From assembly GCA_009923755.1 (NCBI GenBank), contig RFSW01000003.1, positions 1 through 50,594 of the forward strand: a stretch of 50,594 bases of DNA, given 5' to 3'. This stretch comes from Betaproteobacteria bacterium. GTDB lineage: Bacteria > Pseudomonadota > Gammaproteobacteria > Burkholderiales > UBA3065. Positions 15,589 through 44,393 of the stretch are shown piece by piece (position 1 is the first letter of the stretch; each line of letters opens with the position of its first letter). The notes under the pieces are model-generated. The model did not search any database and had not been told where the DNA came from. It was given only the letters and a program-made list of their open reading frames with translations. A program made the position numbers and the translations under genes.

Positions 15589-16508
15589 GCCAACCGGATC
15601 GCTTCGGGACGCTCGACGACGTTCCCCTCACCGACGCCTGGGCGCACGAGGCCCACGAGTTCACCCCGTGGCTCGCCCAGAACCTGAGCCGGCTTTCCGA
15701 CGCCCTCGGCATTCCGCTCGAGCTCACGGACACCGAGGTGGCCGTCGAAGCCTTCGCGGCCGATATCCTCGCGCGCAATCCGCAGGACGACACGGCCGTC
15801 CTGATCGAGAACCAGTTCAAGCCGAGTGATCATGGTCACCTCGGCCAGATCATGACCTATCTCGCAGGGCTCAACGCCTCGACTGTCGTGTGGATCGCGC
15901 CGAGCTTCCGCGAGCCGCATCTCTCGGCCATCCGTTGGCTGAACGAGAACACGCCCGAAAGCTTCGCGTTCTTCGCCGTCGCCTTGCGCGTCGTTCGTAT
16001 CGCAGATTCCCCGATGGTCCCCCTGTTCGACGTCGTGGAGCGGCCGAACGCCTGGGAGCGCCGCGTCCAGGAGACGAAGCGCGAGGCGCAAGCGCCGTCG
16101 GCCATCGGCGCGTTCCGGCGGAACTTCTGGGCCCACATGCTCCGCCGCCATCCCTCCGAAGGCGACCCCGCGAAGCCTTATGCGGCAAGCTCGAGGTGGC
16201 GCGAGCTCCCCGATCACAAGCTCGCCGTCGTGCAATACATCGCCCAATCCGGTCCCGGCATCTTCATCCGCTGCCCGCGAGGCGGGGACGACGAGGCGGC
16301 GGCCGAGCTGCTCGATCCCTACGAGCGGCAGCTCGAGGAACGGCTCGGTGTGCCGATCAACGCCACCAACCCACGCTATCTCTTCATCAAGCACCTGCGG
16401 CTCGATGCGACCAATCCCGGCAATTGGGATCACATCGCCGATTGGCTTCACGAGGAAGCCGATCGCTACGTGGCCGCGCTGACCGACGTTCTGGGAGAGC
16501 CTGCATAA
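15585..16508 (+). CDS. DUF4268 / NucS-like endonuclease domain protein
   Basis: W.HEA..FTPWL, ADILA, IENQ...SDH.HLGQ..TY; overlaps res stop and mod start. Confidence 0.8.
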   Translation: MSQPDRFGTLDDVPLTDAWAHEAHEFTPWLAQNLSRLSDALGIPLELTDTEVAVEAFAADILARNPQDDTAVLIENQFKPSDHGHLGQIMTYLAGLNASTVVWIAPSFREPHLSAIRWLNENTPESFAFFAVALRVVRIADSPMVPLFDVVERPNAWERRVQETKREAQAPSAIGAFRRNFWAHMLRRHPSEGDPAKPYAASSRWRELPDHKLAVVQYIAQSGPGIFIRCPRGGDDEAAAELLDPYERQLEERLGVPINATNPRYLFIKHLRLDATNPGNWDHIADWLHEEADRYVAALTDVLGEPA

Positions 16509-22070: not shown

Positions 22071-23525
22071 CTACGCGACCTGCCGACCCGAATACCACTC
22101 CGGACCGATCACAACAAAGAAGCGCTCACTTCGGCCCGCATAGGTGCCGGTTCGCGTGTTGATGAGGAAAGCCTCCACCCAGTGCGCGCCGAGGTACAAA
22201 GTCTGTTCCCACCGCGACCCGTCGGAATCGCTGCTCTCGAACTGGCCCCTCAGTCCGTTCTGCGCAGCCGCTTCCTCCCCGGAGTTTACGACACGCCATT
22301 TGATCTGCCAGCCTGAGGGAATGCCTGAGGGCACGCGTGCCGAGAACCGCAACCATATACCCTTCGGCAGTACCACGCCCGAGGTGAAAGGGCGGATCGG
22401 TACGCCTCCGCGCTGTGCGTAAGCCGTCGCAGAGACCTCAACGCGCAACTGTCCAGATTTCGGCCAAGGCGGGCGGCTCACGTACGGCAGGTTGGCCGGA
22501 ATGCGTTCCAGGAGCGCCGGACCATGGCGGGACACCGCCGCCACCAGATCGGCACTCACGGATCGTGCCGCCTTCAGAACGACACCGGCGACGGAGGTCG
22601 CCTTCCCCACGACCTCGCTCTTGGCAAAGTCATCCCCGAAAACGCGTCGCCATTTCGCGATGCTCTCGTCGCGGTCGTTCTCGTTGTACGCGTCGTCGAT
22701 CCACAGCCGGTACTGTCGGATCTTGTCTCGGAAGTTGTCGTATGTCGCCTGATCCCAGTGCCTGTTGAAGTCCTCGCTCCGTAGCGCCGGATTTGTCACC
22801 GTCGGCATCAGCGGCCGGGCCTGCAGCCAGTCGTCGAGCAAACCGAAAATGGTTCTGAAAGCCGTGGGAACATCGGGATAGTAGAGGTCGCGTACTGTCG
22901 CATGCCAATCCTCCACCCGCTCGCCAAGCAGCGTGGCAAGCAGCACCGACTTCGCCGAGAACGTCCCCTTGATGTCCCGGAGATACTTGAAGAGCCGAGT
23001 CGTCTTCCGCAGCGCGTCGTTCCCGGCCACGATATTGCGACCCGCGAACCACTCCGCAAATCCCTCGCCGTCGGTCAGCTCGTAGGTATTCACTGCACGG
23101 TTGCACACCGCGTACCAGACATGGTTGTCGCGCTTCAACCGGATACAGACGACAAGATCGAGATGGAAATCGTTCGCGTAGTCGAGCGTCACGCAGCGTG
23201 TGTTACGCGTGGCGAGCGACTTGTACCGATCGCTGTCGCGAAACACCCGGTAGAGATCATCGATGTAGTCGCGCGGCTCCCATCCTTCGACGGAATCGAC
23301 GAGCACCAGCAGATCTGCATCGAAGTCCTTGCCGTTTGGCGGCTTGATGATCGTTTTGACCGCCCATGACCCCTGCCGCGAATAGCGCAGAATGCGAGCC
23401 CCGAAATCGCTGTTCGACAGGAAGTCCTCGATCGCATCGACACGGGCTTCGAGCAGGTCGATGCGGGTTGCGTTGAGGTTGACGACATCCCGCAGGAACG
23501 TCTCGAAATGCCCGACGAGCTTCAT
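22071..23525 (-). CDS. CBASS CD-NTase (SMODS nucleotidyltransferase) with C-terminal AGS-C-like domain
   Basis: QGSW...T.IKP...DFDAD, DLV, V.NP....EDF; tail 'W.VVNSG.EA.....LRG.F....E.T.Y.G.H.VE.F'; ATGA-coupled to capV. Confidence 0.88.
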   Translation of the reverse strand: MKLVGHFETFLRDVVNLNATRIDLLEARVDAIEDFLSNSDFGARILRYSRQGSWAVKTIIKPPNGKDFDADLLVLVDSVEGWEPRDYIDDLYRVFRDSDRYKSLATRNTRCVTLDYANDFHLDLVVCIRLKRDNHVWYAVCNRAVNTYELTDGEGFAEWFAGRNIVAGNDALRKTTRLFKYLRDIKGTFSAKSVLLATLLGERVEDWHATVRDLYYPDVPTAFRTIFGLLDDWLQARPLMPTVTNPALRSEDFNRHWDQATYDNFRDKIRQYRLWIDDAYNENDRDESIAKWRRVFGDDFAKSEVVGKATSVAGVVLKAARSVSADLVAAVSRHGPALLERIPANLPYVSRPPWPKSGQLRVEVSATAYAQRGGVPIRPFTSGVVLPKGIWLRFSARVPSGIPSGWQIKWRVVNSGEEAAAQNGLRGQFESSDSDGSRWEQTLYLGAHWVEAFLINTRTGTYAGRSERFFVVIGPEWYSGRQVA

Positions 23526-24532
23526 GCCTCCCTCCTGTCCGGCAACACGTAGCAAGGAACGAACGGCGCCGCCGGCTTCTCGAAGAAGACCCGCTGCAGA
23601 ACCGGAAACTGCTCGCGCGCCGTCGAGAACCCGAGCCCCTTGAGCTCGCCGATGACGCCCGCATCGTCCATGGCGTAGAGGTTCTCGGGCACCACATGGT
23701 CGATGCGGTAGATCGCAGTGCGGCTATGCGGATGACCCGTCAGCAGCATCGCGGTGCCCATCGACGACTTCGACTGGCCGTCCATCAGCAGCTTGATGGC
23801 CCGCACGCCAAGTGTGCCGATGCCGGCCGCTTTCGGAATCCGATACGTCTCCTCCAGGCACCCGAGGCTCAAAACGTCGAGTTCCTCTCCTTTCCACCCG
23901 AGCACTCCGACCGCCTCGATCACCGCCGGACCGACGGGATTGTTGGCCCACACCCCGCCGTCAACCAATCCGACGTCATTGGCCGTGATGTGCTCCCGGA
24001 AGAAAGTCGGCGCCGATGCCGTTGCAAGCGCCACATCCACCGCGCGATCGCAATAGTCCGTCAGAAGACGAGGATGATGCGCCGTCTTGTAAACGTAGAG
24101 ATTGCGAGCCGTCGGGTTCCACGCCGGGATCATGAGCCGCGTGCCCGACTCACCGAGCTGCCGAGCACCCAGCACGTCCTCGAGGGCAGACCGCAATCCC
24201 TCGGAGCCATATTTCGGGCGCACCAGTCGGCGCAACCCGCGTACCTTGCCGAGCGCGTAATCCACGAACGCGCCTCGCCCCTGACCGAAAATCACCGGTC
24301 CCCGCTCCGTATAAAGCCCGAGGATCTGACGCGCAGTCAGCCCAAGGCCAAGACCGAGAGCAATGATCCCGCCCCCCGAGGTCCCCGCGATCAAATCAAA
24401 ATACTGGCCGAGCGGTTTTCCGACCTTCTCCTCGATGGCCGCCAACACCGAAGCCGGATAGGTCGACAGCAAGCCGCCGCCGTCGATGCTCAAAATGCGC
24501 CGGACCTGCCCCGGCGATGGTTCGCCCGTCAT
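23522..24532 (-). CDS. capV: CBASS patatin-like phospholipase effector
   Basis: ILSIDGGG, FDLIAGTSGG, ATASAPTFF, VDGGVWANNP; directly upstream of CD-NTase. Confidence 0.9.
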   Translation of the reverse strand: MTGEPSPGQVRRILSIDGGGLLSTYPASVLAAIEEKVGKPLGQYFDLIAGTSGGGIIALGLGLGLTARQILGLYTERGPVIFGQGRGAFVDYALGKVRGLRRLVRPKYGSEGLRSALEDVLGARQLGESGTRLMIPAWNPTARNLYVYKTAHHPRLLTDYCDRAVDVALATASAPTFFREHITANDVGLVDGGVWANNPVGPAVIEAVGVLGWKGEELDVLSLGCLEETYRIPKAAGIGTLGVRAIKLLMDGQSKSSMGTAMLLTGHPHSRTAIYRIDHVVPENLYAMDDAGVIGELKGLGFSTAREQFPVLQRVFFEKPAAPFVPCYVLPDRREA

Positions 24533-24675: not shown

Positions 24676-25749
24676 ATGATTGGCGCACGGTTGAAGACGG
24701 CTCGCGCGGCGTCTGGGTTGTCGTTGCGTGAACTTGAGCATCGAATTGGAAAGCGCGTCACAGCGCAGATGATCGGCAAATACGAGCGCGACGAGACGAT
24801 GCCGTCGTCCGACGTGCTGATGGTGCTTGCCGAGGCGCTCGGCGTGTCAGAAGAGTTCCTCCTCTCCGATGGCAATCTCGCGCTCGAAATGGTCGAGTTT
24901 CGCAAGAAAGCTGCCACGTCGGTGCGCGAGCAGGCCCAGCTCGAAGGTCAGACGTTGCACTTGCTCTCGCGTTATCTCGCCATCGAAGGCGTCCTTGGCT
25001 TGTCGAGCATCTGGGACAAGCCCAGGGAGGCCCCTTATCCAATTTCCGCGGTTGCCGACGCCGAGAGTGCGGCGAACGCCGTGCGCATCCATTGGGGCCT
25101 CGGTGTCGACCCTATCCCCTGCATTGTCGAGCTCTTCGAGGAACGCGGCGTCAAGGTGCTGTCCGTGCCCCTCTCCGACATCTCCGGCATGACGGCCAAG
25201 GTGCGTCGGGTGGCCGGCGAGCCGGTGCCCGTCGTCGTCGTCAGCCACAGCGACTGGTCCGAGCGCAAGCGGTTCACGCTTGCCCATGAGCTCGGCCACA
25301 TGGTCATGGATACGTCCTCGCTCGGCAGCGAGAAAGACGCTGAGCGCGCCGCTCACCGCTTCGCAGGCGCGTTTCTCATGCCAGCCGAAGCCCTCTGGCG
25401 GGAGATCGGCAAACGCCGCTCCTCCATCAGCCTCGGCGAGCTGTTGAGCCTGAAGCACCTCTTTGGCGCGAGCTTCCAGGCCATCACCTATCGTTGCCGA
25501 GACCTTGGCCTGATCAACGATCACCTCTTCCGCCGGCTCTTCCAGGAGTTCGGCAAGCGTGGCTGGCGCTCGGCCCCCTTCAAAGAGCCCGGCGCCATCG
25601 ATCCATCCGAGGAGCAACCCCGCCGCCTCGAGCGGTTGAGCTACCGTGCCCTGGCTGAGGGCCTCATCGGGGAAGCGCGTGCCGCCGAGATCATCGGCAT
25701 CTCCGTGCGCGATCTCAACGCACGCATGGACGCGGCGAGCACGAGCTGA
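24676..25749 (+). CDS. XRE-HTH plus ImmA/IrrE Zn-metallopeptidase fusion (RmrA-like / CapH-CapP-like)
   Basis: N-terminal XRE HTH; RFTLAHELGH and E..A..FA..FLMP. Confidence 0.92.
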   Translation: MIGARLKTARAASGLSLRELEHRIGKRVTAQMIGKYERDETMPSSDVLMVLAEALGVSEEFLLSDGNLALEMVEFRKKAATSVREQAQLEGQTLHLLSRYLAIEGVLGLSSIWDKPREAPYPISAVADAESAANAVRIHWGLGVDPIPCIVELFEERGVKVLSVPLSDISGMTAKVRRVAGEPVPVVVVSHSDWSERKRFTLAHELGHMVMDTSSLGSEKDAERAAHRFAGAFLMPAEALWREIGKRRSSISLGELLSLKHLFGASFQAITYRCRDLGLINDHLFRRLFQEFGKRGWRSAPFKEPGAIDPSEEQPRRLERLSYRALAEGLIGEARAAEIIGISVRDLNARMDAASTS

Positions 25750-25753
25750 CGCC

Positions 25754-26245
25754 ATGGTGGTCCTCGTCTCGGATACCTCTGTTCTCATCGATCTGGAGCG
25801 GGGCAATTTGCTCGAGACCACGTTCGATCTTCCGTTCGAGTTCGTGGTACCCGACCTGCTCTACCGTCGCGAGCTACAGGCCTACAATGGCCCGCATCTG
25901 CTCTCGCTCGGCCTGCGGGTCGAGACCCTCTCCGAGACCGAGGTCTCGACCGCGACCGTTGCGCTCAGGGCCGAGCCGCGCCTGTCAACGCCGGACGCGT
26001 TCTCATTCGCACTCGCCCGGAGCCGGAACTGGCTCTTGCTGACTGGAGACGGCCCCCTGCGCTCCCTCGCCGGCCAGCATGGCCTTCGCCATCACGGGGT
26101 CCTGTGGATGCTCGATCAGATCGAGGGTCATGCACTCCTCGGTGCGGACGCGCTCCACGCCTCGCTGTCCCGGCTCATCGCCCATCCAAGGTGTCGTTTG
26201 CCGGCAATCGAGGTCAAGGAGCGCCTCCGGCGATGGCAGTCCTGA
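25754..26245 (+). CDS. PIN-domain protein (putative toxin)
   Basis: VSDTSVLID, LS..D, LLTGD..LR; 4 bp after the peptidase gene. Confidence 0.85.
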   Translation: MVVLVSDTSVLIDLERGNLLETTFDLPFEFVVPDLLYRRELQAYNGPHLLSLGLRVETLSETEVSTATVALRAEPRLSTPDAFSFALARSRNWLLLTGDGPLRSLAGQHGLRHHGVLWMLDQIEGHALLGADALHASLSRLIAHPRCRLPAIEVKERLRRWQS

Positions 26246-26302
26246 TCGCCGTTCGCCTCGAGCCGCACCGGCGAGGTGGGGAATCTCGTCTGTCTTCGAT
26301 CT

Positions 26303-26501
26303 GTGTTCGAGATCCGCGCGGTCTCGTGTGATGCCGACTGTGCGCCGGGTCGCGAACGCTTCAAGGGCGTTGCCCTCGGCTTCGGCTGCGCCGGCCGCCT
26401 CGCCCGTTCCGGTCTTCGGTTCCGCATCCGCTAGGAGCCCGTCGCCTTCGTCCGGCATCGAGACCGCAATCACGCGGGCCTCGAAACACGAAGGATCTGA
26501 C
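26303..26501 (+). repeat. hairpin leader family A, copy 1 (upstream of parB-like gene)
   Basis: 28-bp (26372-26399) and 19-bp (26450-26468) blocks identical to the ardC leader; self-complementary ends. Confidence 0.85.
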
Positions 26502-28370
26502 ATGACCGAGACCATCACCATCCCGCTGAGCAAACTTGCCCCCTGGACCGACAACGTGCGCCGCACAAGCGCCAACGACGGTATCGAGGAGCTGGCCGCC
26601 TCCATCGCCGCCCACGGCCTCCTGCAATCGCTCGTCGTCCGCAAGGGCAAACGCGGCAAATTCGAGATCGTCGCCGGCCGGCGCCGCTATCTGGCTCTCA
26701 CGAAGCTCGCCGCCGCCGGTGCCATCGACCAGGACTACGCCGTCGCGTGCATGCTGGCCTCCAGTGATATCGACGCGAGCGAGCTCAGCCTCGCCGAAAA
26801 TATCGTGCGGGCTCCGATGCATCCTGCCGACCAGTACGAGGCGTTCAGCGCTCTTGAGCAGCACGGCGCGAGCCCCGCCGACATAGCGGCCCGGTTCGGT
26901 CTCTCCGAGCTTGCCGTCACGCAGCGCCTGAAGCTCGGCCGTCTCGCACCCGCCATCCTCGGCGCCTACCGCGCAGGCGATCTGACGTTGGAATGCGCCC
27001 AGGCGTTCACCGTGACCGACGACCACGACGCCCAGGTCCGGGTCTATGACGACCTTCCGTCCTGGAACCGCGAGCCGCACATCATCCGCCGCGCCTTGAC
27101 CGAGGACGAGGTTCCTTCGTCCGACAAGCGCGTCCGCTTCCTCGGGCTCGATACCTATCTCGATGCGGGTGGCGCCTTCCGCCGGGATCTCTTCAGCGTC
27201 GATGGCGAAGGCTACATCCTCAATGTCGAACTGCTCGATCGTCTCGTCTCGGAGAAACTCAAGGCCGAGGCCGCACTGCTAGCCGCCGAAGGCTGGGCCT
27301 GGATCGAGACCTGTCCCGACACCGACTACCAGACGCTCGCGAGGTTCTCGCGCCGCCATCCCGAGCACGTTCCGCTCACCGACGCCGATCAGGCCGAGCA
27401 CGACCGTCTCGCCGAAGACTACGACACCCTCGTCGACGCCGACGATGCCGACGAGACGGCGCTCGCCGACATCGAGCAGCGCATGGACGCTCTCTCCGCC
27501 AAGTCGGAGGCTTGGTCCGCTGAGACGCTGTCCGTCGCCGGTGCGATCGTCACCCTCGATCATCAGGGCCGTGTGCGGGTCGAGCGCGGGCTCGTTCGCA
27601 AGGAAGACCTCGCGAAGCTCAAGCCGACCGCTGCCGACGACACCGCGTCCGAGCATGGCGATGCCCTCTCGGCGACTGCCAAACCTGGCTTGTCTCCCAA
27701 GCTCATCGAGGAGCTGACCGCCGAGAAGTCCGCGGCCATCGCCGCAGAGCTGACCGGTCTCCCCGACATGGGGCTGACCGCCGTGGTTCATGCGCTCACG
27801 CTCGAGATATTCTTTCCCGGCCGTGGCCAGCATAGCTGCCTGAAGCTCCGCCTCCAGGCGCCCGGCCTCGCCTTCTCGATGGCGAAGCCCGACGCGAGCA
27901 AGGCGCTGACCGCCCTGATGGCCGAGAAGGAACGCGTCGGCGACCGTATCCCCGGTGATCCTGCCCACCTCTGGGACTGGTGTCTCGCCCGATCCCGCGA
28001 CGAGCTGCTCCAGTTGCTCGCCTTCATCGCGGCTTATGCCGTGGACACCGTCCAAGCCAAGGGCGAGCGCGCCGACAGCGACCGCCTTATGCACGGCAAC
28101 GCTCTTGCCCAGGCCGTCACGCTCGACATGACCGAATGGTACGCGCCGACGTCGGAAGGCTACTTCAACCGGATCCGCCGCAGCCAGATCATGGCCTCTA
28201 TCGACGAAGCCAAAGGCGGCCACGGTCCGGCTCTCGACAAGCTCAAGAAGTCCGAGCTGGCCGCGCGGGCGGAAGTGCATCTGGCCGGAACGGGCTGGCT
28301 GCCGGAGCCGCTGCGCATCTCCGGGACGCCCGCACCGCGCGAGACCCGGCTCGCCGAGGCGGCGGAATGA
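26502..28370 (+). CDS. parB: large ParB/RepB/Spo0J N-terminal domain plasmid protein (622 aa)
   Basis: NVRR, ELAASI..HGLLQ.L.V, VAGRRR..A, SL.EN..R..MHPAD. Confidence 0.9.
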   Translation: MTETITIPLSKLAPWTDNVRRTSANDGIEELAASIAAHGLLQSLVVRKGKRGKFEIVAGRRRYLALTKLAAAGAIDQDYAVACMLASSDIDASELSLAENIVRAPMHPADQYEAFSALEQHGASPADIAARFGLSELAVTQRLKLGRLAPAILGAYRAGDLTLECAQAFTVTDDHDAQVRVYDDLPSWNREPHIIRRALTEDEVPSSDKRVRFLGLDTYLDAGGAFRRDLFSVDGEGYILNVELLDRLVSEKLKAEAALLAAEGWAWIETCPDTDYQTLARFSRRHPEHVPLTDADQAEHDRLAEDYDTLVDADDADETALADIEQRMDALSAKSEAWSAETLSVAGAIVTLDHQGRVRVERGLVRKEDLAKLKPTAADDTASEHGDALSATAKPGLSPKLIEELTAEKSAAIAAELTGLPDMGLTAVVHALTLEIFFPGRGQHSCLKLRLQAPGLAFSMAKPDASKALTALMAEKERVGDRIPGDPAHLWDWCLARSRDELLQLLAFIAAYAVDTVQAKGERADSDRLMHGNALAQAVTLDMTEWYAPTSEGYFNRIRRSQIMASIDEAKGGHGPALDKLKKSELAARAEVHLAGTGWLPEPLRISGTPAPRETRLAEAAE

Positions 28371-28538
28371 CCGCGGCCTTCCGGCTGCGCAGCGATGCGC
28401 AGCCGGTTCTCTTGAAGAACCGGGTGCGCCATAGCCGTGATCGCCTCCCTCCCAAAATTACCGAACTTGACCTCTCGCCCCGCCGATCTACGTCGCTTGC
28501 TGGCGCCCGCCATGATCCGGGCGCCGACGGACGAAGAT

Positions 28539-29582
28539 ATGACCACAGACCAAAGCCCACGAGACCTTCCACCCCATCACACCTCGGCACCCGGAACCCT
28601 GCTCGAAACACACGAGGACTGTCCGCTCTGCGAGGGCCGGTCACGACGGCTTCTCTGCCGCCATGGTCGCAACTTCGAGCGCCTCGATACGGTGATGTGT
28701 ACGGGTTGCGGCCTGGTGCATTCGCACCCGATCCCGGACCGCGAGACGCTCGCGGATTACTACCGGGAAACCTACAGGTCCGACTACAAGGCCGCTCGCA
28801 CGCCAAAGCTCAAACATCTCGTGCGCTACACCCCAGGCGTGCTCGCGCGTGTGCGCGAGATCCAGAGGCTGGCGCGTCCCGATCAGACAGAATTGCTCGA
28901 TATCGGGTCGGGATGCGGGGATTTTCTTTACATGGCCACCAAGCTCGGCTTCCACGGCCGCGGACTCGAGCCCCACAAGGGCTATGCTGCCTTCGCCCGC
29001 GACGAGCTCGGCATGCCCGTCGAGACAGGGTCCTTCGAGACCGCGACGTTCGACCCGGCGGCCTTCGACGTCGTCAACCTGCACCACGTGCTCGAGCACA
29101 TGTCCGAGCCCGTCGCCACACTTCGGCGCCTGCATACCCTGCTGCGTGAGGACGGCCTGCTGGCGATCGCCGTGCCCGACGTGTCGCTCTGCGCGCATGC
29201 GCCATGGACCCAGTTCCACCGGGCGCATATCTACAATTTCAATCACCAGACGTTGAGCGCCGCCCTCGCGCGCGCCGGGTTCGAGGTGCTCAATCCCGAA
29301 TTGGGCAGCACCTCGCTGATCGCCCGTAAGGTCTCGATATCCCGCGACAGCGGCCCCCGCTCCATGCCCTCCAATTACGCAGACCTTTGGGACCGCCTCT
29401 CGACCCATTCGGGGCCACGTCATTATCTGAGCCCCCGACCGTATCGCAGGCTCATGAAGAAGCTGATCCGCTATCCGGCGGAGATGCTCTGGGCAGCCCG
29501 ATACAGGACAGCCCGTCGCGTTCTCGACGATTGCTTCAATCGCTCCCCTAAGACACCCGACAACCCAAGACACCTTCCATAA
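28539..29582 (+). CDS. class I SAM-dependent methyltransferase with N-terminal Zn knuckle
   Basis: CPLC...C.GCG; LLDIGSGCG; FDVV.L.HVLEH. Confidence 0.88.
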   Translation: MTTDQSPRDLPPHHTSAPGTLLETHEDCPLCEGRSRRLLCRHGRNFERLDTVMCTGCGLVHSHPIPDRETLADYYRETYRSDYKAARTPKLKHLVRYTPGVLARVREIQRLARPDQTELLDIGSGCGDFLYMATKLGFHGRGLEPHKGYAAFARDELGMPVETGSFETATFDPAAFDVVNLHHVLEHMSEPVATLRRLHTLLREDGLLAIAVPDVSLCAHAPWTQFHRAHIYNFNHQTLSAALARAGFEVLNPELGSTSLIARKVSISRDSGPRSMPSNYADLWDRLSTHSGPRHYLSPRPYRRLMKKLIRYPAEMLWAARYRTARRVLDDCFNRSPKTPDNPRHLP

Positions 29583-29627
29583 TCGGCACGGACGTCAAAA
29601 ATACTTTATACGGAATATAAATACGCT

Positions 29628-29954
29628 ATGCTTGTGGGACCGATGCGTAAGAAACGTCCCGCCGATCGCGAGCCTTGCAGCAGTCCAGACGAGCTGCCAC
29701 CCCTCAGCGACCCCAACCACGTCGCCGAGTGCTACGCGAACCATACCGCAGGACTGAGCTTCCGGGATGGCGTGGTGCACCTGACCCTGAGCGTCGTCAG
29801 GCCGCTACACCTAACTACCGTCACAGGTCCGCACCTGGAAAATGTCGTCGTCGCACGCGTCGCGCTCTCCGAGCCTGCCATGCAGGCGATCGTGCAAGCC
29901 TTTGCGCAGCTCTGCGCCGCCATACAGACGCCCCGCCCGGAGAAGATGAACTGA
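29628..29954 (+). CDS. hypothetical protein
   Basis: ORF after AT-rich promoter; 'YAN...VVARV.LS' pattern reminiscent of DUF3467. Confidence 0.55.
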   Translation: MLVGPMRKKRPADREPCSSPDELPPLSDPNHVAECYANHTAGLSFRDGVVHLTLSVVRPLHLTTVTGPHLENVVVARVALSEPAMQAIVQAFAQLCAAIQTPRPEKMN

Positions 29955-30012
29955 TCGCGGGGGACCGCGTAGCCACGACCCAGCATCGCCAATTCCGGGA
30001 TCCCGCACATAC

Positions 30013-30309
30013 TCAGATGTTTCGCCGATACCGCCGGTCCTTCTGCGCCTTGGGCCGCGGCCCCTTGGCCGGCTTCACAAGACCCTCCGCCTGCAGAAAG
30101 CGCTCGAACCGCGCAAACGCCTTGTAGCCGGCCGGACCGTACCCGGAGAAGATGGCTGCACCCTGACGGTGAATGGCGACGGCCTCTCCGTCGGTCGCGC
30201 AGAAATGATGGCCGAGCAAATCCGCGCAGGGCTCGTCATAGGTCATGAAATTGGCGGCCGTCCGAAACACGTTCGCCGACGACCTATAGATCTCGATTAC
30301 GATCGGCAT
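30013..30309 (-). CDS. hypothetical protein, possibly leaderless
   Basis: TTGCCG-17-GATGAT ending 6 nt before ATG. Confidence 0.55.
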   Translation of the reverse strand: MPIVIEIYRSSANVFRTAANFMTYDEPCADLLGHHFCATDGEAVAIHRQGAAIFSGYGPAGYKAFARFERFLQAEGLVKPAKGPRPKAQKDRRYRRNI

Positions 30310-30366
30310 ACGGCAATCATCGCCGCGACCGCCGACAGCGGCAAGATGAGTGCCATCGCATGCAGC

Positions 30367-30558
30367 TCATATCCGGAAGGCCGGGCGACGTTGCAGTCGG
30401 TCGAGAAGCAGCATTGCGTGCCGCAGGTTCATGAGCGCCGTCTCATGAGCCGAAGATCCGGGCGTGAGCAGTGGGAGCACATTCCGCATGTCTCGGATGA
30501 CGAGGCGAAGCTGCGCCTCGGAATAGCGGCTCAATTCCAGGTAAGTCAGTAATCTCAT
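30367..30558 (-). CDS. 63-aa protein
   Basis: Strong AAGGAGG RBS; GC-rich structured-looking leader. Confidence 0.7.
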   Translation of the reverse strand: MRLLTYLELSRYSEAQLRLVIRDMRNVLPLLTPGSSAHETALMNLRHAMLLLDRLQRRPAFRI

Positions 30559-30857
30559 AGGGCCTCCTTGGTGAGGCCACGCACCGTGCGCGGCATCAAG
30601 GGACGCCTGACGCAGACCCGAGGGGAAGCCGCATCGCCTGCGACCGAAACGAACGTGAAGGAGTGTCCGTCGCCAACGGACACTTGCGGCCCACCAGCCA
30701 CTCGGATCTGCACACTGGCCGGCCTGTTGCCACGTTGCGCTGCCTCCGAGCGGAGGCTGGGATGACTGAGCTGCCCCTGGAATGGTCGCTTACGCAGGCG
30801 CGACGCGAGAATTTGACGGAGCGACCCGCTTGCTGCCAAAATGCGGCCTACTGAATT

Positions 30858-33509
30858 ATGAGCTCTCTGATCGATGCCCCGTCACGGCCCGAGGCCGTCC
30901 TCGAAACCACCCTCGCCATCCCGGGCGACCCGCTGCTGTCGGCACAATGGTATCTGCGGAATACAGGACAGAAGGGCGGCATACCCGGCATCGACATCGA
31001 CGTGCTTCCCGTCTGGCCCGATTTTGACGGCTCCGGTATCCGCGTCGCTGTAATCGACGACGGTTTCGATCTCCAGCACCATGAGCTCTCGGCCGCCTTC
31101 GGCCGGACTGCCGGATACGATTATCGTGCCAACGATCCCGACCCCACGGCCGGTCCGGGCGATCGCCACGGCACCGCCGTCGCCGGCATCATCGCGGCTG
31201 CCGCGAATGGTAGCGGGGTCGTCGGCATCGCGCCGGGCGTCGCAATCATGGGGCTGCGCGTCAGCTTCGAGGCCGATAGCACCGCCGCCATGTTCGAGCA
31301 GGCCTTGTCAGCCATCGTCGATGCCGACGTCGCGAACAACAGCTGGGGTTACACGCAGCCCTTCGCTGATAATTTCAGTGCGCCTTATATGCAGGTGATG
31401 CGCGCCGCAATCGAGACAGCGGCCGATCACGGGCGCGACGGTCTCGGTACCACCATCGTCTTCGCGGCCGGCAACGGACGCGCCTCCGGGGATGACACCA
31501 ACCTTCACTCCCTCAAGAACGCGAGCGCGATCATCACCGTCGCCGGCATCGACGCGTCCGGCCGCGCGCTCTCCTTCTCCACGCCGGGTGCCACGCTTCT
31601 CGTCTCTGCCCCCGGACAATCTATTCTGACAACGGACGTCATCGGCGCCCAAGGCTACGAGGCCGACGATGATGTCGCGCTCTCCGGAACATCGTTCGCA
31701 GCTCCGATGGTGAGCGCCGTCGTCGCCCTCATGCTCGACGCAAACCCGGCTCTCGGCAACCGCGACGTCCAGGAGATCCTCGCCTATTCGGCTCGCCAGA
31801 TCGATCCCAACGGCAGCCTCTGGCAGGTCAACGGTGCGGGCAACCGCAACGGAACCGGCCTCCATTTCTTGCACGACTACGGTTTCGGGCTTCTCGACGC
31901 GCATGCCGCCGTCCGCCTTGCCGAAACCTGGAACGCGGTACCGGCCACCAGCTCGAATGCCGTGCGCCTGACCGTAAGTTCGACCCTGTCGTCCGATATT
32001 CCCGACGGCTCTTCGTTCGTCCTCTCGACGATCAGCGTGACAACCCCACTCCGTATCGATCGCGCTGAAATCACGTTCGACATGTCCCATTCCCGTCCTT
32101 CGGATCTCGAGGTCGTGCTGATTTCTCCTCACGGCACCGAAAGCCGGCTGCTCGACCATCCGAACGTCGGCCAGCTGCCCATGTTCACATTCGGCACCGT
32201 CGCGAGCTGGGGTGAATCGAGCCTTGGCACCTGGACGCTGAAAGTCTCCGATACACGGACCGGCGAGCGCGGTCGGCTCGAGGGCTGGTCTCTCACGCTC
32301 CTGGGCGACCCTGTCACTGCCGACGACACCTACATCTTTACCGACGCTTACATCACGTCGGCAGCACCGGCTTTGGTCACAGACGCCAACGGCGGCGTCG
32401 ATACGCTGAACGCTGCCGCCGTCACGCAACCGGTCATCCTCGACCTCGGCGGGCGCACTGGCTGGCTCGGTGGCAAACCCGTCCACATCGCACCGGGCGC
32501 GTCGATCGAAGCGCTCGTGACCGGTGACGCGGACGACATCCTCACAGGCGATTCTCTTCGGAACCGTATTCTCTCAGGGCGCGGTGACGACCTCATCTTC
32601 GCCTCGACCGGCGGCGATCTGATCGATGGCGGACCCGGCACCGACACCTATGTCTATACGGATCGCTTCCGGGAGGCGCTCATCGCCAACACCGCCGAGA
32701 GCGCCACGCTGCGCCATCGCGACACCGGCGAGGTCACGCACCTGGCGCATATCGAGCAGGTCACGATTGCCCGCACCACCCTTCCGTTTCCGGATTTCTT
32801 GACCATCGCCGCTCTCGTCGACGGCTTCTTCAAGGACGGCGAGGCCGGGCGCGACATGCTGCGCGGCAGCCCCGACCGCGACGCGCTCTATGGCGGACCC
32901 GGCGACGATTACCTATTCGGCTTCGATCAAGCCGATTACATCCGGGGCGATGCCGGCATCGACCGGATCTACGCGGGAGCCGGCGACGACCTTCTCTTCG
33001 GCGGTGACGACGGTGACATCCTCTGGGGCGGTCTCGGCGCCGACACGCTCGAGGGTGGGGCGGGGCAGGACGCCCTGTTCGGCGAGGACGGCGCCGACAG
33101 GCTGAGCGGTGGCCCCGGCAACGACATCCTCTATGGCGGCGAAGGCGACGACATCCTCGCCGGCGGCGCCGGACAAGACACGCTCACCGGCGGGGCTGGT
33201 CGAGACACCTACGTGCTCGACGTCCTCGATGGCATCGTCGACTTCATCTTCACCTTCGAGGCGGATGGTCCGGAGGCAGACCGTCTCGATCTCCGCGCCC
33301 TGCTGACGGGTCTCGATCCCTCCGCTTCCCTCGACCGCTACATTGCCTTGTCGCTCCACGGCACGGACACGCTCGTCTCCGTCAATCCAGACGGGCTCGG
33401 TTCCGATGCCATCCCGCTCGCGCGCCTCGCCCACGCCAGTCTCGGCGAACCGATCCAGCATTACCTGGACCGTAACATCCTCATAGCTTTCGACGCGCAA
33501 CTCGCCTGA
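30858..33509 (+). CDS. S8 (kexin-like) serine protease with P-domain and RTX Ca-binding repeats; probable T1SS substrate
   Basis: VIDDG, HGTAVAG, AAGN, GTSFAAP; GGxGxD repeats; no signal peptide. Confidence 0.92.
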
Positions 33510-33546
33510 TTGCCCTCGCGCGTCGCTCGACGCGCTGACGCCACGC

Positions 33547-33761
33547 CTCCTGTCCGCCGCCGCAGAGCGGTCTCTCATCATGCCGACCATGCGCCAGGGC
33601 GCGGGCGCTTCAAGGGCTCACGCCCTCGGCTTCGGCTGCGCCGGCCGCCGGCCCCGTCTTGGAAGGGAGGGGGGCCGGTTCCGCACCCGCTCGGGCCCCG
33701 TCGCCTCTGTCCGGCATCGAGACCGCACTCACGCGGGGCTCGGCAGGACAAGGAGAAGCTA
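33547..33761 (+). repeat. hairpin leader family A, copy 2 (upstream of ardC)
   Basis: Identical blocks 33622-33649 and 33709-33727; outer stem ctcctgtcc pairs with ggacaaggag (RBS). Confidence 0.85.
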
Positions 33762-34667
33762 ATGTCAGCCCGTCATCAGATCAAAACCGAGCGCAGGGAC
33801 ATCCACGCGGAGATCACCGCAAAGCTCATCGCCAGCATCGAGGCCGCGCCCGGCCGTCCGTCACTGCCCTGGCGGCGATCGTCTGCGCCCCTCTTCATGC
33901 CGGAGAACGCGCTCACCAAGAAGCCCTACAACGGCATCAATATCGTCAGCCTCTGGGTTGCCGCCGAGGCGCACGGCTATTCCGTCCCTGTATGGGGGAC
34001 GTACAAACAATGGTCGGAAATGGACTGCCAGGTCCGCAAGGGCGAGAAATCGTCCCTCGTCGTCTTCTACAAGGAGTACGAGGCCGAGCCCGACCCGGAC
34101 AAAGCCGACGACGACGGCAAGCGCCGCGTAGCGCGCGCCTCCTACGTCTTCAACGCCGCCCAGGTCGACGGCTTCACCGCTCCCGGGGCACCGGAGCCGC
34201 TCGGTCCCATCGACCGTATCGCCGCGGTCGACCGCTTCGTCACGGCGACGGGCGCCCGCATCGAGCACGGCGGCGAACGCGCCTACTACCGCCCCTCGAC
34301 CGACCACATCCAGATGCCCGACGAGACGCTCTTCTGCGGCACGACGACCATGTCACGCTCGGAGAGCTACTACGCCGTCCTCTGCCACGAGATTCTTCAC
34401 ATGAGCGGCTCGGAGAAGCGTCTCAATCGCCAGTTCGGCAAGCGCTTCGGAGACGCGGCCTACGCCGCCGAGGAGCTCGTCGCCGAGATCGGCAGCGCCT
34501 TCCTGTGTGCGGAGCTCGGCATCACGCAGGATACCCGCGAGGACCACGCCCAGTACCTGGCGCAGTGGCTGACCCTGCTCAAATCCGACAGCCGGGCCAT
34601 TTTTACCGCCGCCGCCAAGGCCTCCGAGGCCGTCGCCTACCTCAAGGCACTGCAGGCTCCCTCGTAG
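33762..34667 (+). CDS. ardC: ArdC antirestriction / ssDNA-binding protein with zincin-like domain
   Basis: LPW, P.N..T...Y.GIN...LW, WGTYKQW...QVRKGEK, VFNA.Q, HEILH, YA.EELVAE. Confidence 0.92.
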   Translation: MSARHQIKTERRDIHAEITAKLIASIEAAPGRPSLPWRRSSAPLFMPENALTKKPYNGINIVSLWVAAEAHGYSVPVWGTYKQWSEMDCQVRKGEKSSLVVFYKEYEAEPDPDKADDDGKRRVARASYVFNAAQVDGFTAPGAPEPLGPIDRIAAVDRFVTATGARIEHGGERAYYRPSTDHIQMPDETLFCGTTTMSRSESYYAVLCHEILHMSGSEKRLNRQFGKRFGDAAYAAEELVAEIGSAFLCAELGITQDTREDHAQYLAQWLTLLKSDSRAIFTAAAKASEAVAYLKALQAPS

Positions 34668-34701: not shown

Positions 34702-34729
34702 ACCGGACACCGGGGTGATCCGGTTTTTT
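34702..34729 (+). terminator. intrinsic terminator after ardC
   Basis: accgga...tccggt stem followed by T-tract. Confidence 0.6.
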
Positions 34730-35677: not shown

Positions 35678-35717
35678 TTGACGTATTCTGACATAATTGG
35701 CATAATCGCCAATTATG
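35678..35717 (+). promoter_or_regulatory. sigma70 promoter with 10-bp operator palindrome
   Basis: TTGACG-17-CATAAT; cataattggc-ataatc-gccaattatg covers the -10 and the ATG. Confidence 0.6.
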
Positions 35718-37006: not shown

Positions 37007-37413
37007 CCCGCCGTCCACATTCCACATGAGACGCATGATGCCCCGCCTCCGGCGGGGCATTTCCATTCCGCCCGCCATCGCCCTTGGCGATACCCCAGAA
37101 AACATCGCGCCCCGGAAGCCAAAGCCTCCGGAGCGCGCCCGTCCACATTCCACAGTAGACAGATCGGAGCATGCCCCCGCACATGCAAACGAATGCCGAA
37201 AGCCATTCCATAGCATTCAATACATCCGATAATCAAATCTACAAATAGTATTTTTAACGCCAAATTAAATGGACTTGACGGAAAATCTTAATGTGGAGCC
37301 AGATGTGTCCGCGTAATACGCGAACGTGATCTGGCAGGGCGAATTCGCGAACCCCACCCGCCAGCCGGCTGCGCTTCCCGTCTCTCGCTCCGAACCCGAG
37401 CCAAAGGCCGCGA
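37007..37413. other. putative oriT region / mob promoter
   Basis: Non-coding, upstream of mobC-relaxase; 16-bp direct repeat (37011, 37139), several inverted repeats, weak MOBP-like ccctg^c on - strand near 37335. Confidence 0.45.
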
Positions 37414-37761
37414 TTGACGAACCAGAACACCGAGCAACACCGCACCATCATCCTGACCACCAGAGTCAACCCCGAAGAGCATGCCCTCATCATCGAGGCT
37501 GCTGCCCGTACCAATCTCCCTCCCGCCACCTATCTCCGCGCCGCCGCCCTCAATGCCAGACTGGTCGTGAGAACCTTCGCGACGATGGCGCCCGAGGACC
37601 TGGCGCAACTGAAACGGTTGGGCAATCTCCTCAACCAGATTGCGCGCTCGGGCTGGCGAGGACGCTTTACCCGGCCGACAGAAGAACTCCATGCCCGGGT
37701 GATGCTGGAGCTGCTGACCGTCATTCGCCGCCTCGGCTCGACCAAGTCGCCGTCGGCATGA
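37414..37761 (+). CDS. mobC: relaxosome accessory protein MobC
   Basis: RHH N-terminus; 'L.RLGN.LNQIAR'; ATGA overlap with relaxase. Confidence 0.88.
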   Translation: MTNQNTEQHRTIILTTRVNPEEHALIIEAAARTNLPPATYLRAAALNARLVVRTFATMAPEDLAQLKRLGNLLNQIARSGWRGRFTRPTEELHARVMLELLTVIRRLGSTKSPSA

Positions 37762-40253
37762 TCGTCGCGCGCATCGACAACGCCCGCTCCTCCCGGACGC
37801 CGTTCCGACGCGGCAGGTCGTTCAAAGGCGCTCTCAAATACCTTCTGACCGGATCGAAGACCGCACCCAGTCCGGAGCGCGTCCTCTACGCCGAGACCGT
37901 CAACATCTATGGCGACCTGAGCGACGCCGCCCATGCCATGGCCACGACATGGCAAGCCCGTTTTGCGCTCATGCGCGCGGCAGGTCTCGCGCCCAAAAAC
38001 GGTGCTGACAACAAGGCGCCGGTCTATCACCTCGTCATCTCCTGGTCGGCTGACGAAGATCCGCCGCCATCACGCGAGATGGCCGATCTGGCAAAACAGC
38101 TCCTCTGCCTGCTCGGCCTCGGCGAGCACGAGGCCGTCCTCGTGGTCCACGGGGATACCGATCACCCGCACATCCACATCATCGCCAATACCGTCCACCC
38201 GGTCACCGGCCGGACGGCCCCCCTGAGCTTCGACAATCGCATCATGCAGGGGTTCGCTGCCCGCTACGAGGAGTTGCGCGGCAAGATCGTCTGCACCGGT
38301 CGCTTTGCGCCCGAAGTCCGCTCGGCCTTCAACGCCGCGGCCGGACTGACCGCGCGCGGGCGGCGCCAGAGTCGCCCGAGGTGGCACCGCAGCACCGCGC
38401 CCGTCCGTGAGGCCGCCCGCATCGCGCTGCCTTCGGTCGTCCTCGAGGCTTTGACCCGTCACAACGCGACGTTCTCGGCCGCCGAGCTCGCCCGCGCCGT
38501 CACCGAGACGACGGCGACGCCGGGCGCGTTCGCCGATCTCATGGCCGCTGTCATGGCTTCGCCCGAGCTCGTCCGTCTGACCGATGCCGAGGGTGCTCCC
38601 CGTTACACCACACGCACCCAGCTCGACGCCGAGGCGCGCCTCGCCGCTTCCGCCGCGCATCTCGCCACAACGATCACGCACGACGTCACCACCGTGGCGC
38701 GCACCCGGGCCCTGTCACGCTTTGCCGGACCAGAGCAGAGCGGTCCCCGCGAGGCCCTCGCGCACCTGCTCGATCCGCGCGGCCTCTCGGCCGTCGTCGG
38801 CTATGCGGGCGCGGGCAAGTCGACGCTTCTCAAAGCGGCCGCCGAGGCCTGGCACGCCTCGGGATATCGATTGCGGGGGCTGGCGCTCGCCGGGCGCGCG
38901 GCCGAGGCCCTCGAGGCCGACTCCGGCATTCCCTCCGGCACCATCGCCGGCTTTCTGATGGGCCTCGACTCCGGCGCCGTCGTGCTCGGCGCCAAGGACA
39001 TCATCGTCATCGACGAGGCCGGCATGGTCGCGAGCCGACAACTCGACCGGCTTCTGTTCGCCGTCCGCCAGGCCGGCGCCAAGGTCGTCCTTGTCGGCGA
39101 TCCCGAACAGCTCCAGGCGATCGAAGCCGGCGGCCCCTTCCGCTACATCGTCGAGCATTTCGAGCACGCGCGTCTCACGACGATCTGGCGCCAGAAGGAA
39201 GCCTGGATGCGCGAGGCCACCCGGAACCTGGCAGAGGGCGCGACGCAGCTTGCCCTCACCGCCTACACGAACGCCGGTATGGTGCAAGCGCATGACGCCA
39301 AGGCCGACGCCATCACCTCGATCCTCGACATGTGGCTCGCCAACCGCGAGCGCGGTCTCTCGCAGCTGATCCTGACCGCCACCAACGCAGATGCAGGGCT
39401 CGTCAACACGGCCGCACGCGGTCGCCTCAAGGAGATGGGTGTTCTCGGCCCCGACACCGTCGTGGACCTCGAGGAGGGTCCCATGGCCGTCGCCGCCGGC
39501 GACCGCATCGTCTTCCGCCGCAACGACCGCACGCTCGGCGTCAAGAACGGTACCACGGGCACGCTCGTCACCGTCGCCGGCCAGGGTCTCGTCGTCGCGG
39601 TCGACGGTCCCCCGCCACGGCTCGTGGAGGTCGATACGGCCCGCTATCCCCACATTGCCCACGGCTATGCCGTGACGATCCATAAGGCACAGGGCGCGAC
39701 CGTCGATCGCACGTACGTTCTCGCCGCCCCCAACATGGACCGGCATTCGGCCTATGTCGCGCTCAGCCGCCACCGCGAGCGGGTCTCGCTGCACTGGTCG
39801 AAGGATGTCTTCCCCGACGTCGCCATCCTCGCCCGGCGGCTGGCGCGCAAGCGCCTCAAGGATACGACCCTCGATTACCGGGAGGAGGTCGCCGCCAAGC
39901 TGCGCACCGTGACAGCCAAGGCCCGCGCCGCGACAGCGACCATGCCCGATACCAAGGCCTGGGCGGGTTTCCTCGCCGCGCAACGCGCCGAAGCGGACCA
40001 CGTCGCCGGCATGAGCACGCTGCGTCGCACCTTCTGGATGGCTGCCCATCTCGACCGGTTCGTCCGCGCGCGCGCCGTCACGCTTGCCGGGCTGCAGACT
40101 CGCGAGCGCGCCGCATTCGCGGCAATGCTGCGCAAAGCACCCGTCGGTGACGCGCAACCGGGGGCATGCCCCACAGCTCGACCATCCGGCATCGAACCGG
40201 CGGCGCCGCGACGTCCGTCCCTCCCCCGCGGACCGGCGCCCCGCACACCATAG
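37758..40253 (+). CDS. MOBP-type relaxase fused to TraA/RecD-like helicase
   Basis: YHLVISW...H.DTDHPHIHII.N.V.P; GYAGAGKS, DEAGM, GD.EQL, GYA.TIHK.QG.TVD, YVALSRHR. Confidence 0.92.
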   Translation: MIVARIDNARSSRTPFRRGRSFKGALKYLLTGSKTAPSPERVLYAETVNIYGDLSDAAHAMATTWQARFALMRAAGLAPKNGADNKAPVYHLVISWSADEDPPPSREMADLAKQLLCLLGLGEHEAVLVVHGDTDHPHIHIIANTVHPVTGRTAPLSFDNRIMQGFAARYEELRGKIVCTGRFAPEVRSAFNAAAGLTARGRRQSRPRWHRSTAPVREAARIALPSVVLEALTRHNATFSAAELARAVTETTATPGAFADLMAAVMASPELVRLTDAEGAPRYTTRTQLDAEARLAASAAHLATTITHDVTTVARTRALSRFAGPEQSGPREALAHLLDPRGLSAVVGYAGAGKSTLLKAAAEAWHASGYRLRGLALAGRAAEALEADSGIPSGTIAGFLMGLDSGAVVLGAKDIIVIDEAGMVASRQLDRLLFAVRQAGAKVVLVGDPEQLQAIEAGGPFRYIVEHFEHARLTTIWRQKEAWMREATRNLAEGATQLALTAYTNAGMVQAHDAKADAITSILDMWLANRERGLSQLILTATNADAGLVNTAARGRLKEMGVLGPDTVVDLEEGPMAVAAGDRIVFRRNDRTLGVKNGTTGTLVTVAGQGLVVAVDGPPPRLVEVDTARYPHIAHGYAVTIHKAQGATVDRTYVLAAPNMDRHSAYVALSRHRERVSLHWSKDVFPDVAILARRLARKRLKDTTLDYREEVAAKLRTVTAKARAATATMPDTKAWAGFLAAQRAEADHVAGMSTLRRTFWMAAHLDRFVRARAVTLAGLQTRERAAFAAMLRKAPVGDAQPGACPTARPSGIEPAAPRRPSLPRGPAPRTP

Positions 40254-44190: not shown

Positions 44191-44393
44191 TCCGCGCCGA
44201 CATTCGCCTACGGCGGGCCAAAGCCCAGGTCGTCATCGACGCCTACTGCGACACGCCGCTCAAACGCGCGCAGCACGAGGCCCTGATCGATGTCCTGGCC
44301 GACCTCATGCACTGGACCGACGGCAAGAAGCTCGACTTCCAGAACGCACTCCGCCACGCGCAATCCCACCACGACGCGGAGGTGCAGCCATGA
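44187..44393 (+). CDS. 68-aa protein (D.LADL.HW motif)
   Basis: GGAGG RBS plus ATGA overlap. Confidence 0.75.
   Translation: MIRADIRLRRAKAQVVIDAYCDTPLKRAQHEALIDVLADLMHWTDGKKLDFQNALRHAQSHHDAEVQP

Follow-up and report, generated by a model that had tools for sequence, protein, structure and literature searches.

To our knowledge, promoters that act on single-stranded DNA (ssDNA) have been shown experimentally only in enterobacterial plasmids of the IncF and IncI groups. Here we consider two related leader sequences, A1 and A2, in a stretch of 50,594 nt (contig RFSW01000003.1 of the 1.99-Mb assembly GCA_009923755.1; the window, below), A1 lying upstream of a gene for a ParB-like protein and A2 upstream of ardC. 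An initial annotation had described them as hairpin leaders with a conserved core and copy-specific outer stems, and had suggested that this leader family, family A, is either a GC-rich class of ssDNA promoter or a cis-regulatory RNA. The leaders are a real, conserved, structured cis-element of an uncatalogued family. On the computational evidence gathered below we lean, with confidence that stops a little short of even, toward a new class of ssDNA promoter on the transferred strand, one that would also mask the ribosome site in read-through RNA.

The best described ssDNA promoters are those of F, ColIb-P9 and pESBL. The sections of PMC12672017 drawn on here distinguish three classes of large stem-loops, in which both promoter boxes are rebuilt within the stem and from which transcript starts were mapped by rapid amplification of cDNA ends; in F and pESBL, classes 1-3 precede ssb, psiB, ardA, klcA and a methylase gene. 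The anti-defence genes of leading regions are encoded on the T-strand, according to the portion of PMC11541004 used here, which we take to mean that the T-strand is the template; the same portion describes homologues of the F promoter Frpo as widespread, as judged by similarity to the enterobacterial ones. At least one such element has a second effect, since ssp2 of F also stalls strand conversion, as stated in the abstracted part of bioRxiv 10.64898/2026.01.09.698686. Our full-text literature search returned no description of ssDNA promoters, or of a family A leader, in rhizobia or their relatives.

Counted from its outer stem up to the last base ahead of the ATG, A1 occupies 26287-26501 and A2 33545-33761, both on the + strand. 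Directly after A1 comes a gene (26502-28370, +) for a 622-aa protein with ParB_N and HTH_ParB domains (Pfam PF02195, E 1.5e-11), and directly after A2 comes ardC (33762-34667, +), whose 301-aa product combines an ArdcN domain with a zincin peptidase domain (PF08401, E 4.7e-33; PF18818, E 8.7e-50). When a covariance model, R1, built from a trimmed alignment of the family was scored without filters at every position of the window, only A1 (26310-26482, 139.4 bits) and A2 (33557-33740, 129.1 bits) were significant, and the third-ranked position reached 15.8 bits; the outer arms, which in A2 lie at 33547 and 33746, extend these matches. The two leaders are the sole copies in the assembly. They have a mean column identity of 83% across 241 columns (blastn E 4e-32) and identical blocks of 28 nt (26372 in A1, 33622 in A2) and 19 nt (26450 and 33709). 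In both, GCGGTCTC (26318 and 33567) is matched by its partner GAGACCGC (26460 and 33719), and ATGCCG (26331 and 33580) by CGGCAT (26453 and 33712). The outermost arms are specific to each copy: GTGTTCGAG at 26303 with CTCGAAACAC at 26480 in A1, and CTCCTGTCC at 33547 with GGACAAGGAG at 33746 in A2. The shared blocks, the stems and the self-pairing outer arms that had been reported from the letters are thus all found where the initial annotation put them.

Members of the family were gathered from a genome collection (at least 121 stretches matching the core motif) and a metagenome collection (55 stretches) with the core pattern GCTTCAAGGGC...GCCCTCGG, and a profile search across all fetched loci gave at least 87 matches, 69 of them at 78 bits or more. 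Because this pattern was the means of collection, its bases, among them the -35-like hexamer discussed below, are necessarily invariant in the main alignments. RNAalifold recovered just 21 pairs from the gappy MAFFT alignment, and the helices were defined instead by votes across per-sequence minimum-energy folds, together with a reading of the alignment. The resulting structure is a branched hairpin. Its outer stem, H1, joins the copy-specific 5′ arm to the region of the ribosome site, and H2 joins a segment a′ to a segment C. The core consists of H3, in which segment A (GCGGTCTC) pairs with segment B (GAGACCGC), then H4, in which ATGCCG pairs with CGGCAT, then H5 and H6; at the apex a four-way junction carries hairpins H7, H8 and H9. 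Segments A, B and C lie at 26318-26325, 26460-26467 and 26474-26482 in A1 and at 33567-33574, 33719-33726 and 33733-33741 in A2 (+ strand), and the distal hairpins at 26364-26376, 26378-26396 and 26397-26420 in A1 and at 33613-33626, 33628-33646 and 33647-33679 in A2.

Covariation, which the initial annotation had named as a check, is strong. When 51 sequences were aligned with MAFFT, which is blind to structure, pairing was possible in 83.1% of cells, compared with 40-44% when the partners are slid, and 24 pairs are changed on both sides, a level that none of 500 shuffles reached. The alignment fitted to the model (74 matches, 66 distinct sequences) is biased towards the structure, and in it 86.6% of cells are paired (38-45% when slid), covariation is seen in 38 of the 59 pairs, and compensatory change in 212 cells; here too none of 500 shuffles attained the observed values. 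Helix H3, the second helix of the model, has 90.5% of its cells paired and compensatory change in eight of nine pairs. With divergent copies added, the count of covarying pairs rises to 44 of 59; in those copies H3 and H7 are fully swapped, so that H7 covaries there, whereas H8 and H9 covary in the main set.

The window matched no Rfam family on either strand at the gathering score, and at E values up to 10 it gave only matches of 13-16 bits to unrelated families, so the Rfam check that had likewise been proposed returned no known family. Among the 72,556 plasmid records of PLSDB, a collection that we assume includes the IncF and IncI plasmids, blastn found only two fragments, both on Bradyrhizobium plasmids (4001-4059 of the extracted loci L005 and L006); these hold the 5′ half alone, end after GCCCTCGG, and have no ardC or parB-like gene downstream. 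All named hosts among the matches listed are Alphaproteobacteria (Hyphomicrobium or Hyphomicrobiaceae, Devosia, Nitrobacter, or unclassified), and every one of them belongs to the Hyphomicrobiales. A search with the model, free of the core pattern, took one Hyphomicrobiaceae carrier and sampled 150 further genomes of its order; it found three more carriers, with divergent copies scoring 48-67 bits and mostly two per genome. None of 40 relatives of the genome from which the window comes was found to carry the element. The source assembly is placed in the Burkholderiales, whereas the named hosts among the matches listed are Hyphomicrobiales, and the GC content of the contig (0.649) is like that of the bin (0.657); either the element crossed classes or the contig was mis-binned.

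The members sit at the starts of genes. In 61 of 68 loci an open reading frame (ORF) with a ribosome site begins at the 3′ end of the element, always in a single orientation, and the other seven are cut by contig ends or hold degenerate copies. The 56 distinct products encoded downstream comprise 31 ArdC, 15 ParB_N, two DUF6876 and two DUF7222 proteins by Pfam, with six that fall in no family, and in all 50 cases measured 41-49 nt separate the conserved GAGACC from the ATG. These results bear on whether the leaders are merely dispersed repeats of the REP or MITE kind, a match to which the initial annotation had listed among possible refutations, or a chance similarity with no function of their own. 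The element is indeed repeated within the window, and on one of the Bradyrhizobium plasmids its 5′ half lies beside insertion sequences. Two copies per genome, a constant orientation at gene starts, extensive compensatory changes and the lack of any visible terminal repeats or target duplications contradict such an origin, which we regard as extremely improbable.

The outer stem ties the fold to the gene that follows. In A1 the 5′ arm of H1 (26287-26311, +) holds CTTC, complementary to the ribosome site, and is predicted to form a duplex with the 3′ arm (26480-26501, +), where GAAGGA lies at 26490-26495; in A2 the predicted arms are 33545-33556 and 33742-33761 (+), with AAGGAG at 33750-33755. 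The arm GGACAAGGAG covers the ribosome site of ardC, as had been noticed at the outset. Across 51 members, the outer stems formed by an element's own flanks have a mean energy of -17.2 kcal/mol, compared with about -13.8 kcal/mol for foreign flanks, and none of 2000 permutations of the partners was as low: the pairing of the copy-specific outer arms exceeds chance.

A ribosome site, sometimes with the start codon, held in a stem whose arms co-vary copy by copy is what would be expected of a purely RNA-level translational switch. Such a switch, acting on the + strand as a 5′ or intercistronic leader, would sense a putative ligand, protein or small RNA at its junction. With A closed on B, C could pair with a′ and the ribosome site would be hidden in the outer stem; a local hairpin between B and C would free it. 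In keeping with this, B has two possible partners beneath an outer stem that covers the ribosome site, the arrangement of an occluding platform with an alternative pairing. The three mutually complementary segments are kept through the family and change jointly in two loci of the alignment (L161 and L028), and the local B-C hairpin is paired in 80.9% of cells, compared with 31-50% when slid, with covariation that is not clearly above that of shuffles. Moreover, A2 starts about 36 nt past the stop of a gene on the same strand whose promoter-like site is at 30813, and RNA reading through from that gene must therefore include the leader. Several observations argue the other way. No conserved promoter appears upstream of the element in the family alignment, no Rfam family corresponds to it, and no obvious ligand logic joins genes for ArdC, ParB-like, DUF6876 and DUF7222 proteins. 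The + strand also has features that would be odd in an RNA of this kind, taken up below with the question of strand. We consider such a switch a reasonable explanation but a somewhat doubtful one.

The location of the leaders in the mobile element points to a role during transfer. Downstream of ardC, on the same strand, a gene for a nikA-like relaxosome accessory protein (37414-37761, +; PF21983, E 1.6e-16) overlaps the start of a gene for a relaxase in which a MobA/VirD2 nuclease domain is joined to an AAA_30 helicase domain (37758-40253, +; PF03432, E 7.7e-22; PF13604, E 3.2e-54). By the usual rule, as given in the portion of PMC11541004 cited above, the DNA that lies across oriT from the relaxase operon is the first to enter the recipient. 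It follows from this rule and from the order of genes that the leaders should lie in the leading region, with their genes pointing toward oriT, and that the - strand should be both template and transferred strand. The same rule fits the oriT-nikA-nikB layout of R64. A match to a relaxase domain lies 6-15 kb downstream on the same strand in each of five other genomes (5/5; the identity of the contig was confirmed for one of these, G042), which supports the leading-region context that had been invoked for the pair in the window.

The segment immediately upstream of the nikA-like gene (37007-37413) is likely to be oriT, judging from its place next to the nikA-relaxase operon, its direct repeats and a local minimum in the folding energy of the - strand. 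The repeats (CCGTCCACATTCCACA) are at 37011 and 37139, with a third, partial copy at 37204, and at 37181-37400 the scan recorded its strongest bias of - over + strand folding (-40.8 compared with -26.1 kcal/mol). A comparison of the region upstream of the relaxase with plasmids by blastn gave no match. The nick motif TGCGCCCT was set aside as a guide to oriT: it occurs twice in other parts of the window, as often as would be expected by chance.

If the - strand is the transferred strand, the promoter should be sought on it. The initial annotation had seen no obvious sigma-70 consensus, and for the + strand this holds: no sigma-70-like site was found there just upstream of either leader. It does not hold for the template strand, which carries TTGAAG-N16-CANNNT on the correct arm, that is, the arm that would serve as the non-template strand for rightward transcription. 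There 58 of 59 members read CCCTTGAAGC, as the search pattern forces them to, and CANNNT, which lies outside that pattern, follows TTGAAG at 15-17 nt in 52 of the 59, at 16 nt in 45. In A1 the -35-like TTGAAG (26359-26364, -) lies at the four-way junction and the -10-like CACAGT (26337-26342, -), its key A at 26341 and its T at 26337, in the internal loop between H4 and H5; in A2 the corresponding hexamers are TTGAAG (33608-33613, -) and CATGGT (33586-33591, -). The divergent copies, which were found without the pattern, are informative here. Three of them combine a -35-like box with a 16-nt spacer and GATGGT, the box being TTGAAG (L185), TTAAAG (L186) or TTGCAG (L188); a fourth has TTGCAG, 16 nt and CACGGT (L187), and a fifth (L184) has CAGACA instead. 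Across 51 sequences, TTGNNN-N15-18-NANNNT has 49 matches on the - strand and five on the + strand. In the predicted ensemble of the - strand, helices H5 and H6 hold the spacer in duplex form; the A and T of the -10-like hexamer are unpaired with probabilities of 0.91 and 0.17. A sigma-54-like reading of CGGCATCGAGACCGCC and a sigma-32-like reading of CCCTTGAA were considered by eye alone and set aside.

In double-stranded DNA the same boxes point leftwards, away from the gene, which raises the thought that what folds is an antisense transcript of the - strand that pairs with the mRNA leader; the somewhat better folding of that strand would suit such an RNA. A transcript from TTGAAG-N16-CANNNT would, however, be the complement of the 5′ arm only and would not contain the fold, and a transcript of the whole fold would need a promoter in the first codons of four unrelated gene families, precisely where conservation stops. 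Nor does either leader have a terminator-like site at its far end on the - strand. An antisense RNA is accordingly a very unlikely source of the structure.

Evidence as to which strand folds has to be read against the composition of the window. With RNA parameters 57 of 58 members fold more stably as the - strand, and with DNA parameters all 58 do. The + strand of the window is C-rich (C 0.34-0.39, G 0.28-0.31) in every block tested, including one with - strand genes, and the - strand folds better window-wide because the + strand is C-rich whatever the orientation of the genes. A skew that runs along the whole strand would fit frequent single-strandedness of one strand. As DNA, the - strands of A1 and A2 fold at -56.0 and -69.7 kcal/mol, both local minima in a sliding-window scan, a stability that is in part compositional. 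When composition is controlled, the z scores of A1 and A2 are -2.78 and -3.85 for the - strand and -1.16 and -2.02 for the + strand; over 26 sequences the means are -2.91 and -2.21, the - strand being lower in 19. For an RNA-level switch the values that matter are those of the + strand, which with RNA parameters are -0.78 and -2.21 for the two leaders and, like the mean of -2.21 over the 26 sequences, mark a fold only weakly better than shuffles.

The details of the helices give further, modest hints. On the - strand the loop of H8 has the form C-GNA-G in 28 of 51 sequences, with all four bases occurring in the middle position, and the conserved tandem mismatch of H9 is G.A/A.G there and U.C/C.U on the + strand. 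Pyrimidines are abundant in the junctions and conserved mismatches of the + strand, with 216 C.U or U.C cells including the tandem pair, which counts against an RNA-level switch. Typical RNA families favour G.U over A.C. Here, with one conserved position set aside, there are 66 G.U cells and 87 A.C cells, a count confounded by the strand-wide skew of C over G, and in helices H3-H6 the difference widens to 20 and 63, to which mutational skew could contribute. That the main stem does not favour G.U would speak against a switch made of RNA alone; the pattern is what one would expect if the pairing has to be kept in DNA, or in both strands.

The same strand hints and the same leading-region position would also be in keeping with this element if the leaders were ssDNA features for the conversion of incoming DNA, either priming sites at which a primase or polymerase enters, as at single-strand initiation (ssi) sites or single-strand origins (sso), or structural roadblocks that delay conversion. 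The three adjacent hairpins at the apex resemble G4-type priming signals. Frpo, too, primes DNA synthesis, and ssp2 stalls conversion, in the account given by the abstracted part of bioRxiv 10.64898/2026.01.09.698686. Taken alone, a role of this kind leaves unexplained both the spacing of 41-49 nt to the start codon, seen in all 50 measured cases, and the building of the ribosome site into the stem, and we think it unlikely to be the main function of the element.

We tentatively propose, then, that each leader is a cis-acting gate for the genes that a conjugative element needs first in a new host. The incoming, single-stranded - strand would fold inside the recipient, and its gene-distal arm would then act as the non-template strand and present TTGAAG-N16-CANNNT. 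With H5 and H6 keeping the spacer duplex and the -10-like A held in a pre-opened internal loop, the RNA polymerase of the host would start near GAGACC; the predicted starts, placed by the -10-like motif, are about 26460 and 33719, the first bases of segment B. The short mRNA would have a leader of 41-49 nt with the B-C hairpin at its 5′ end and a more accessible ribosome site: the mean unpaired probability of that site rises from 0.20 in the RNA of the whole leader to 0.47 in the short transcript that we predict, and it is higher in the short form in 43 of 50 cases. Once the DNA had been converted to double strand, the promoter would no longer be directed at the gene, and transcripts reading through from upstream would carry the whole leader, fold, and hide the ribosome site. 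With starts confined to entry and read-through RNA masked, most synthesis of ArdC and of the ParB-like protein would fall in the period of entry. We can also imagine, as a possibility that we would not call probable, that the element represents a new architectural class of ssDNA promoter among the conjugative elements of alphaproteobacteria, in which a TTG box of -35 type is held at a four-way junction, a pre-melted internal loop displays the A and T of the -10 element and lets the host polymerase start with no need to melt DNA, and the hiding of the ribosome site in read-through RNA is added, so that expression is on during entry and off afterwards at two levels.

More distant ardC genes provide a comparison. 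Ten further ardC loci from PLSDB (L190-L199) come from Peteryoungia, Rhizobium, Methylocystis, Agrobacterium, Bradyrhizobium, Salipiger, Ancylobacter, Aminobacter and Bosea. In all ten a large predicted hairpin ends at the start of ardC, its base holding the ribosome site and often the start codon. These hairpins are unrelated in sequence to family A, those of Bosea and R. etli being of one common type, and we did not accept the loci as members, since the model gave no significant match to any; five of the ten scored 9.6-12.8 bits in a segment ending just before ardC. A motif of the form TTG...NANNNT occurs in one of the ten, once per strand, where about two would be expected, and nine lack it on either strand. 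Because the hairpins are present at all ten loci and the motif at one, a hairpin that masks the ribosome site before ardC is general in the alphaproteobacterial class, and the promoter-like motif is specific to family A. The start-codon hairpins, nine of them with no sigma-70-like motif, are what a general mask of the ribosome site would look like, and to that extent they favour a switch at the level of RNA.

The rarity of the motif among these relatives is one of several observations that weigh against an ssDNA promoter. In family A itself the junction leaves most of the -35-like box unpaired (its middle bases with probabilities of 0.59-0.79) and the -10-like box sits in an internal loop, unlike the known elements, which rebuild both boxes in a stem; the invariance of the -35-like hexamer in the main set was imposed by the search pattern, and the T of the -10-like hexamer is absent from seven of 59 members. 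Much of the apparent strand preference is compositional. Ordinary windows of 220 nt favour the - strand by 3.1-5.9 kcal/mol, and the two leaders do so by 7.1 and 8.9 kcal/mol; given this common bias of 3-6 kcal/mol, we have dropped the raw energy difference as a main argument. An excess of G.T pairs on the - strand of the outer stem (147 against 41) was dropped as well, permuted partners giving about 158 against 58. H9, moreover, tolerates G.U on the + strand, with 22 such cells and one conserved G.U position against six A.C cells, as a switch made of RNA would. Finally, no nick site was identified in the candidate oriT region, so that the - strand is predicted to be the transferred strand from the order of the genes.

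Under any of these readings, the branched hairpin covaries, the ribosome site lies in its outer stem, the distance to the start codon is fixed, and the leaders lie by position in a leading region whose template is the predicted transferred strand. Neither of the two possibilities first offered, ssDNA promoter or cis-regulatory RNA, is contradicted by the covariation, Rfam and repeat analyses.

The surroundings of the leaders contain much else of interest. The run of + strand genes to which both downstream genes belong extends from 24676 to 34667 and closes at a terminator-like hairpin with a T run (34709-34724, +) after ardC. Between the leaders, 30858-33509 encodes a subtilase of 883 aa that carries a P-domain as well as RTX calcium-binding repeats, behind the promoter-like site at 30813; it is unusual cargo for a leading region. 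Adjoining the leading region is cargo devoted to defence: a type III restriction-modification pair (12544-19441), a gene for a UvrD-like helicase (19936-22062) and a cyclic-oligonucleotide-based antiphage signalling system (CBASS) pair consisting of a SMODS cyclase (22071-23555, -) and a patatin phospholipase (23522-24532, -). In the AT-rich intergenic segment 35678-35752, a perfect 10-nt palindrome (CATAATTGGC / GCCAATTATG, 35692-35717) overlaps promoter-like sites on both strands and therefore looks like an operator. The window also holds a LuxI/LuxR pair and, beyond the relaxase, a coupling-protein gene, which is adjoined by a 104-nt direct repeat (48900-49003 and 49737-49840, 95% identical, 837 nt apart). 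Two further segments, 44349-44395 and 44669-44715, are 77% identical and both end in GGAGGTGCAGCCATGAGC, resembling a common ribosome site and start of two different ORFs; they are possibly another leader family.

The significance of family A depends on which reading proves right. As a candidate from alphaproteobacteria of soil and freshwater it is GC-rich, covarying and well defined, and an ssDNA promoter here makes specific predictions: (i) a transcript that starts near GAGACC; (ii) dependence on one A and one T of the internal loop; and (iii) inactivity on double-stranded DNA. If these were borne out, early expression of anti-restriction genes from the incoming strand would belong to conjugation in general, and quite dissimilar DNA folds would be able to achieve it. 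Should they prove wrong, the element would be an unclassified structured RNA that controls anti-restriction genes, which would likewise be new.

Set beside known systems, family A has something in common with several. Like translational riboswitches and other leaders that mask ribosome sites, it has a covarying core of many helices, a closing helix one strand of which can instead enter a different hairpin, and a ribosome site within the outermost stem; unlike riboswitches, it has no Rfam family or known ligand, its sense-strand junctions and mismatches are pyrimidine-rich, and G.U is not favoured over A.C. The sso of rolling-circle plasmids and the G4-type ssi are also strand-specific folds of ssDNA, recruiting polymerase or primase after conjugative entry, and in this they would resemble family A; unlike it, they are not tied to gene starts. 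The differences from the Frpo/ssi promoters of classes 1-3 are considerable: there is no sequence similarity (the PLSDB comparison by blastn yielded the two Bradyrhizobium fragments only), the element is GC-rich (0.71-0.76) and its hosts are Hyphomicrobiales, its promoter activity is a prediction, and a branched four-way junction with three distal hairpins replaces the simple long stem-loop. Nevertheless, the likenesses to these promoters, as they occur in IncF and IncI1 plasmids (F, ColIb-P9 and pESBL), are those of plan. Family A, too, is a large fold-back of about 200 nt that lies in a leading region and immediately precedes genes for establishment and anti-restriction, the template of which is (here by prediction) the transferred strand. 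Its relaxosome genes are of the nikA-relaxase type, as we take those of the IncI1 plasmid R64 to be. And it places one type of hairpin before different genes, much as in pESBL, where the hairpins of ardA and klcA resemble each other in the sections of PMC12672017 drawn on here.

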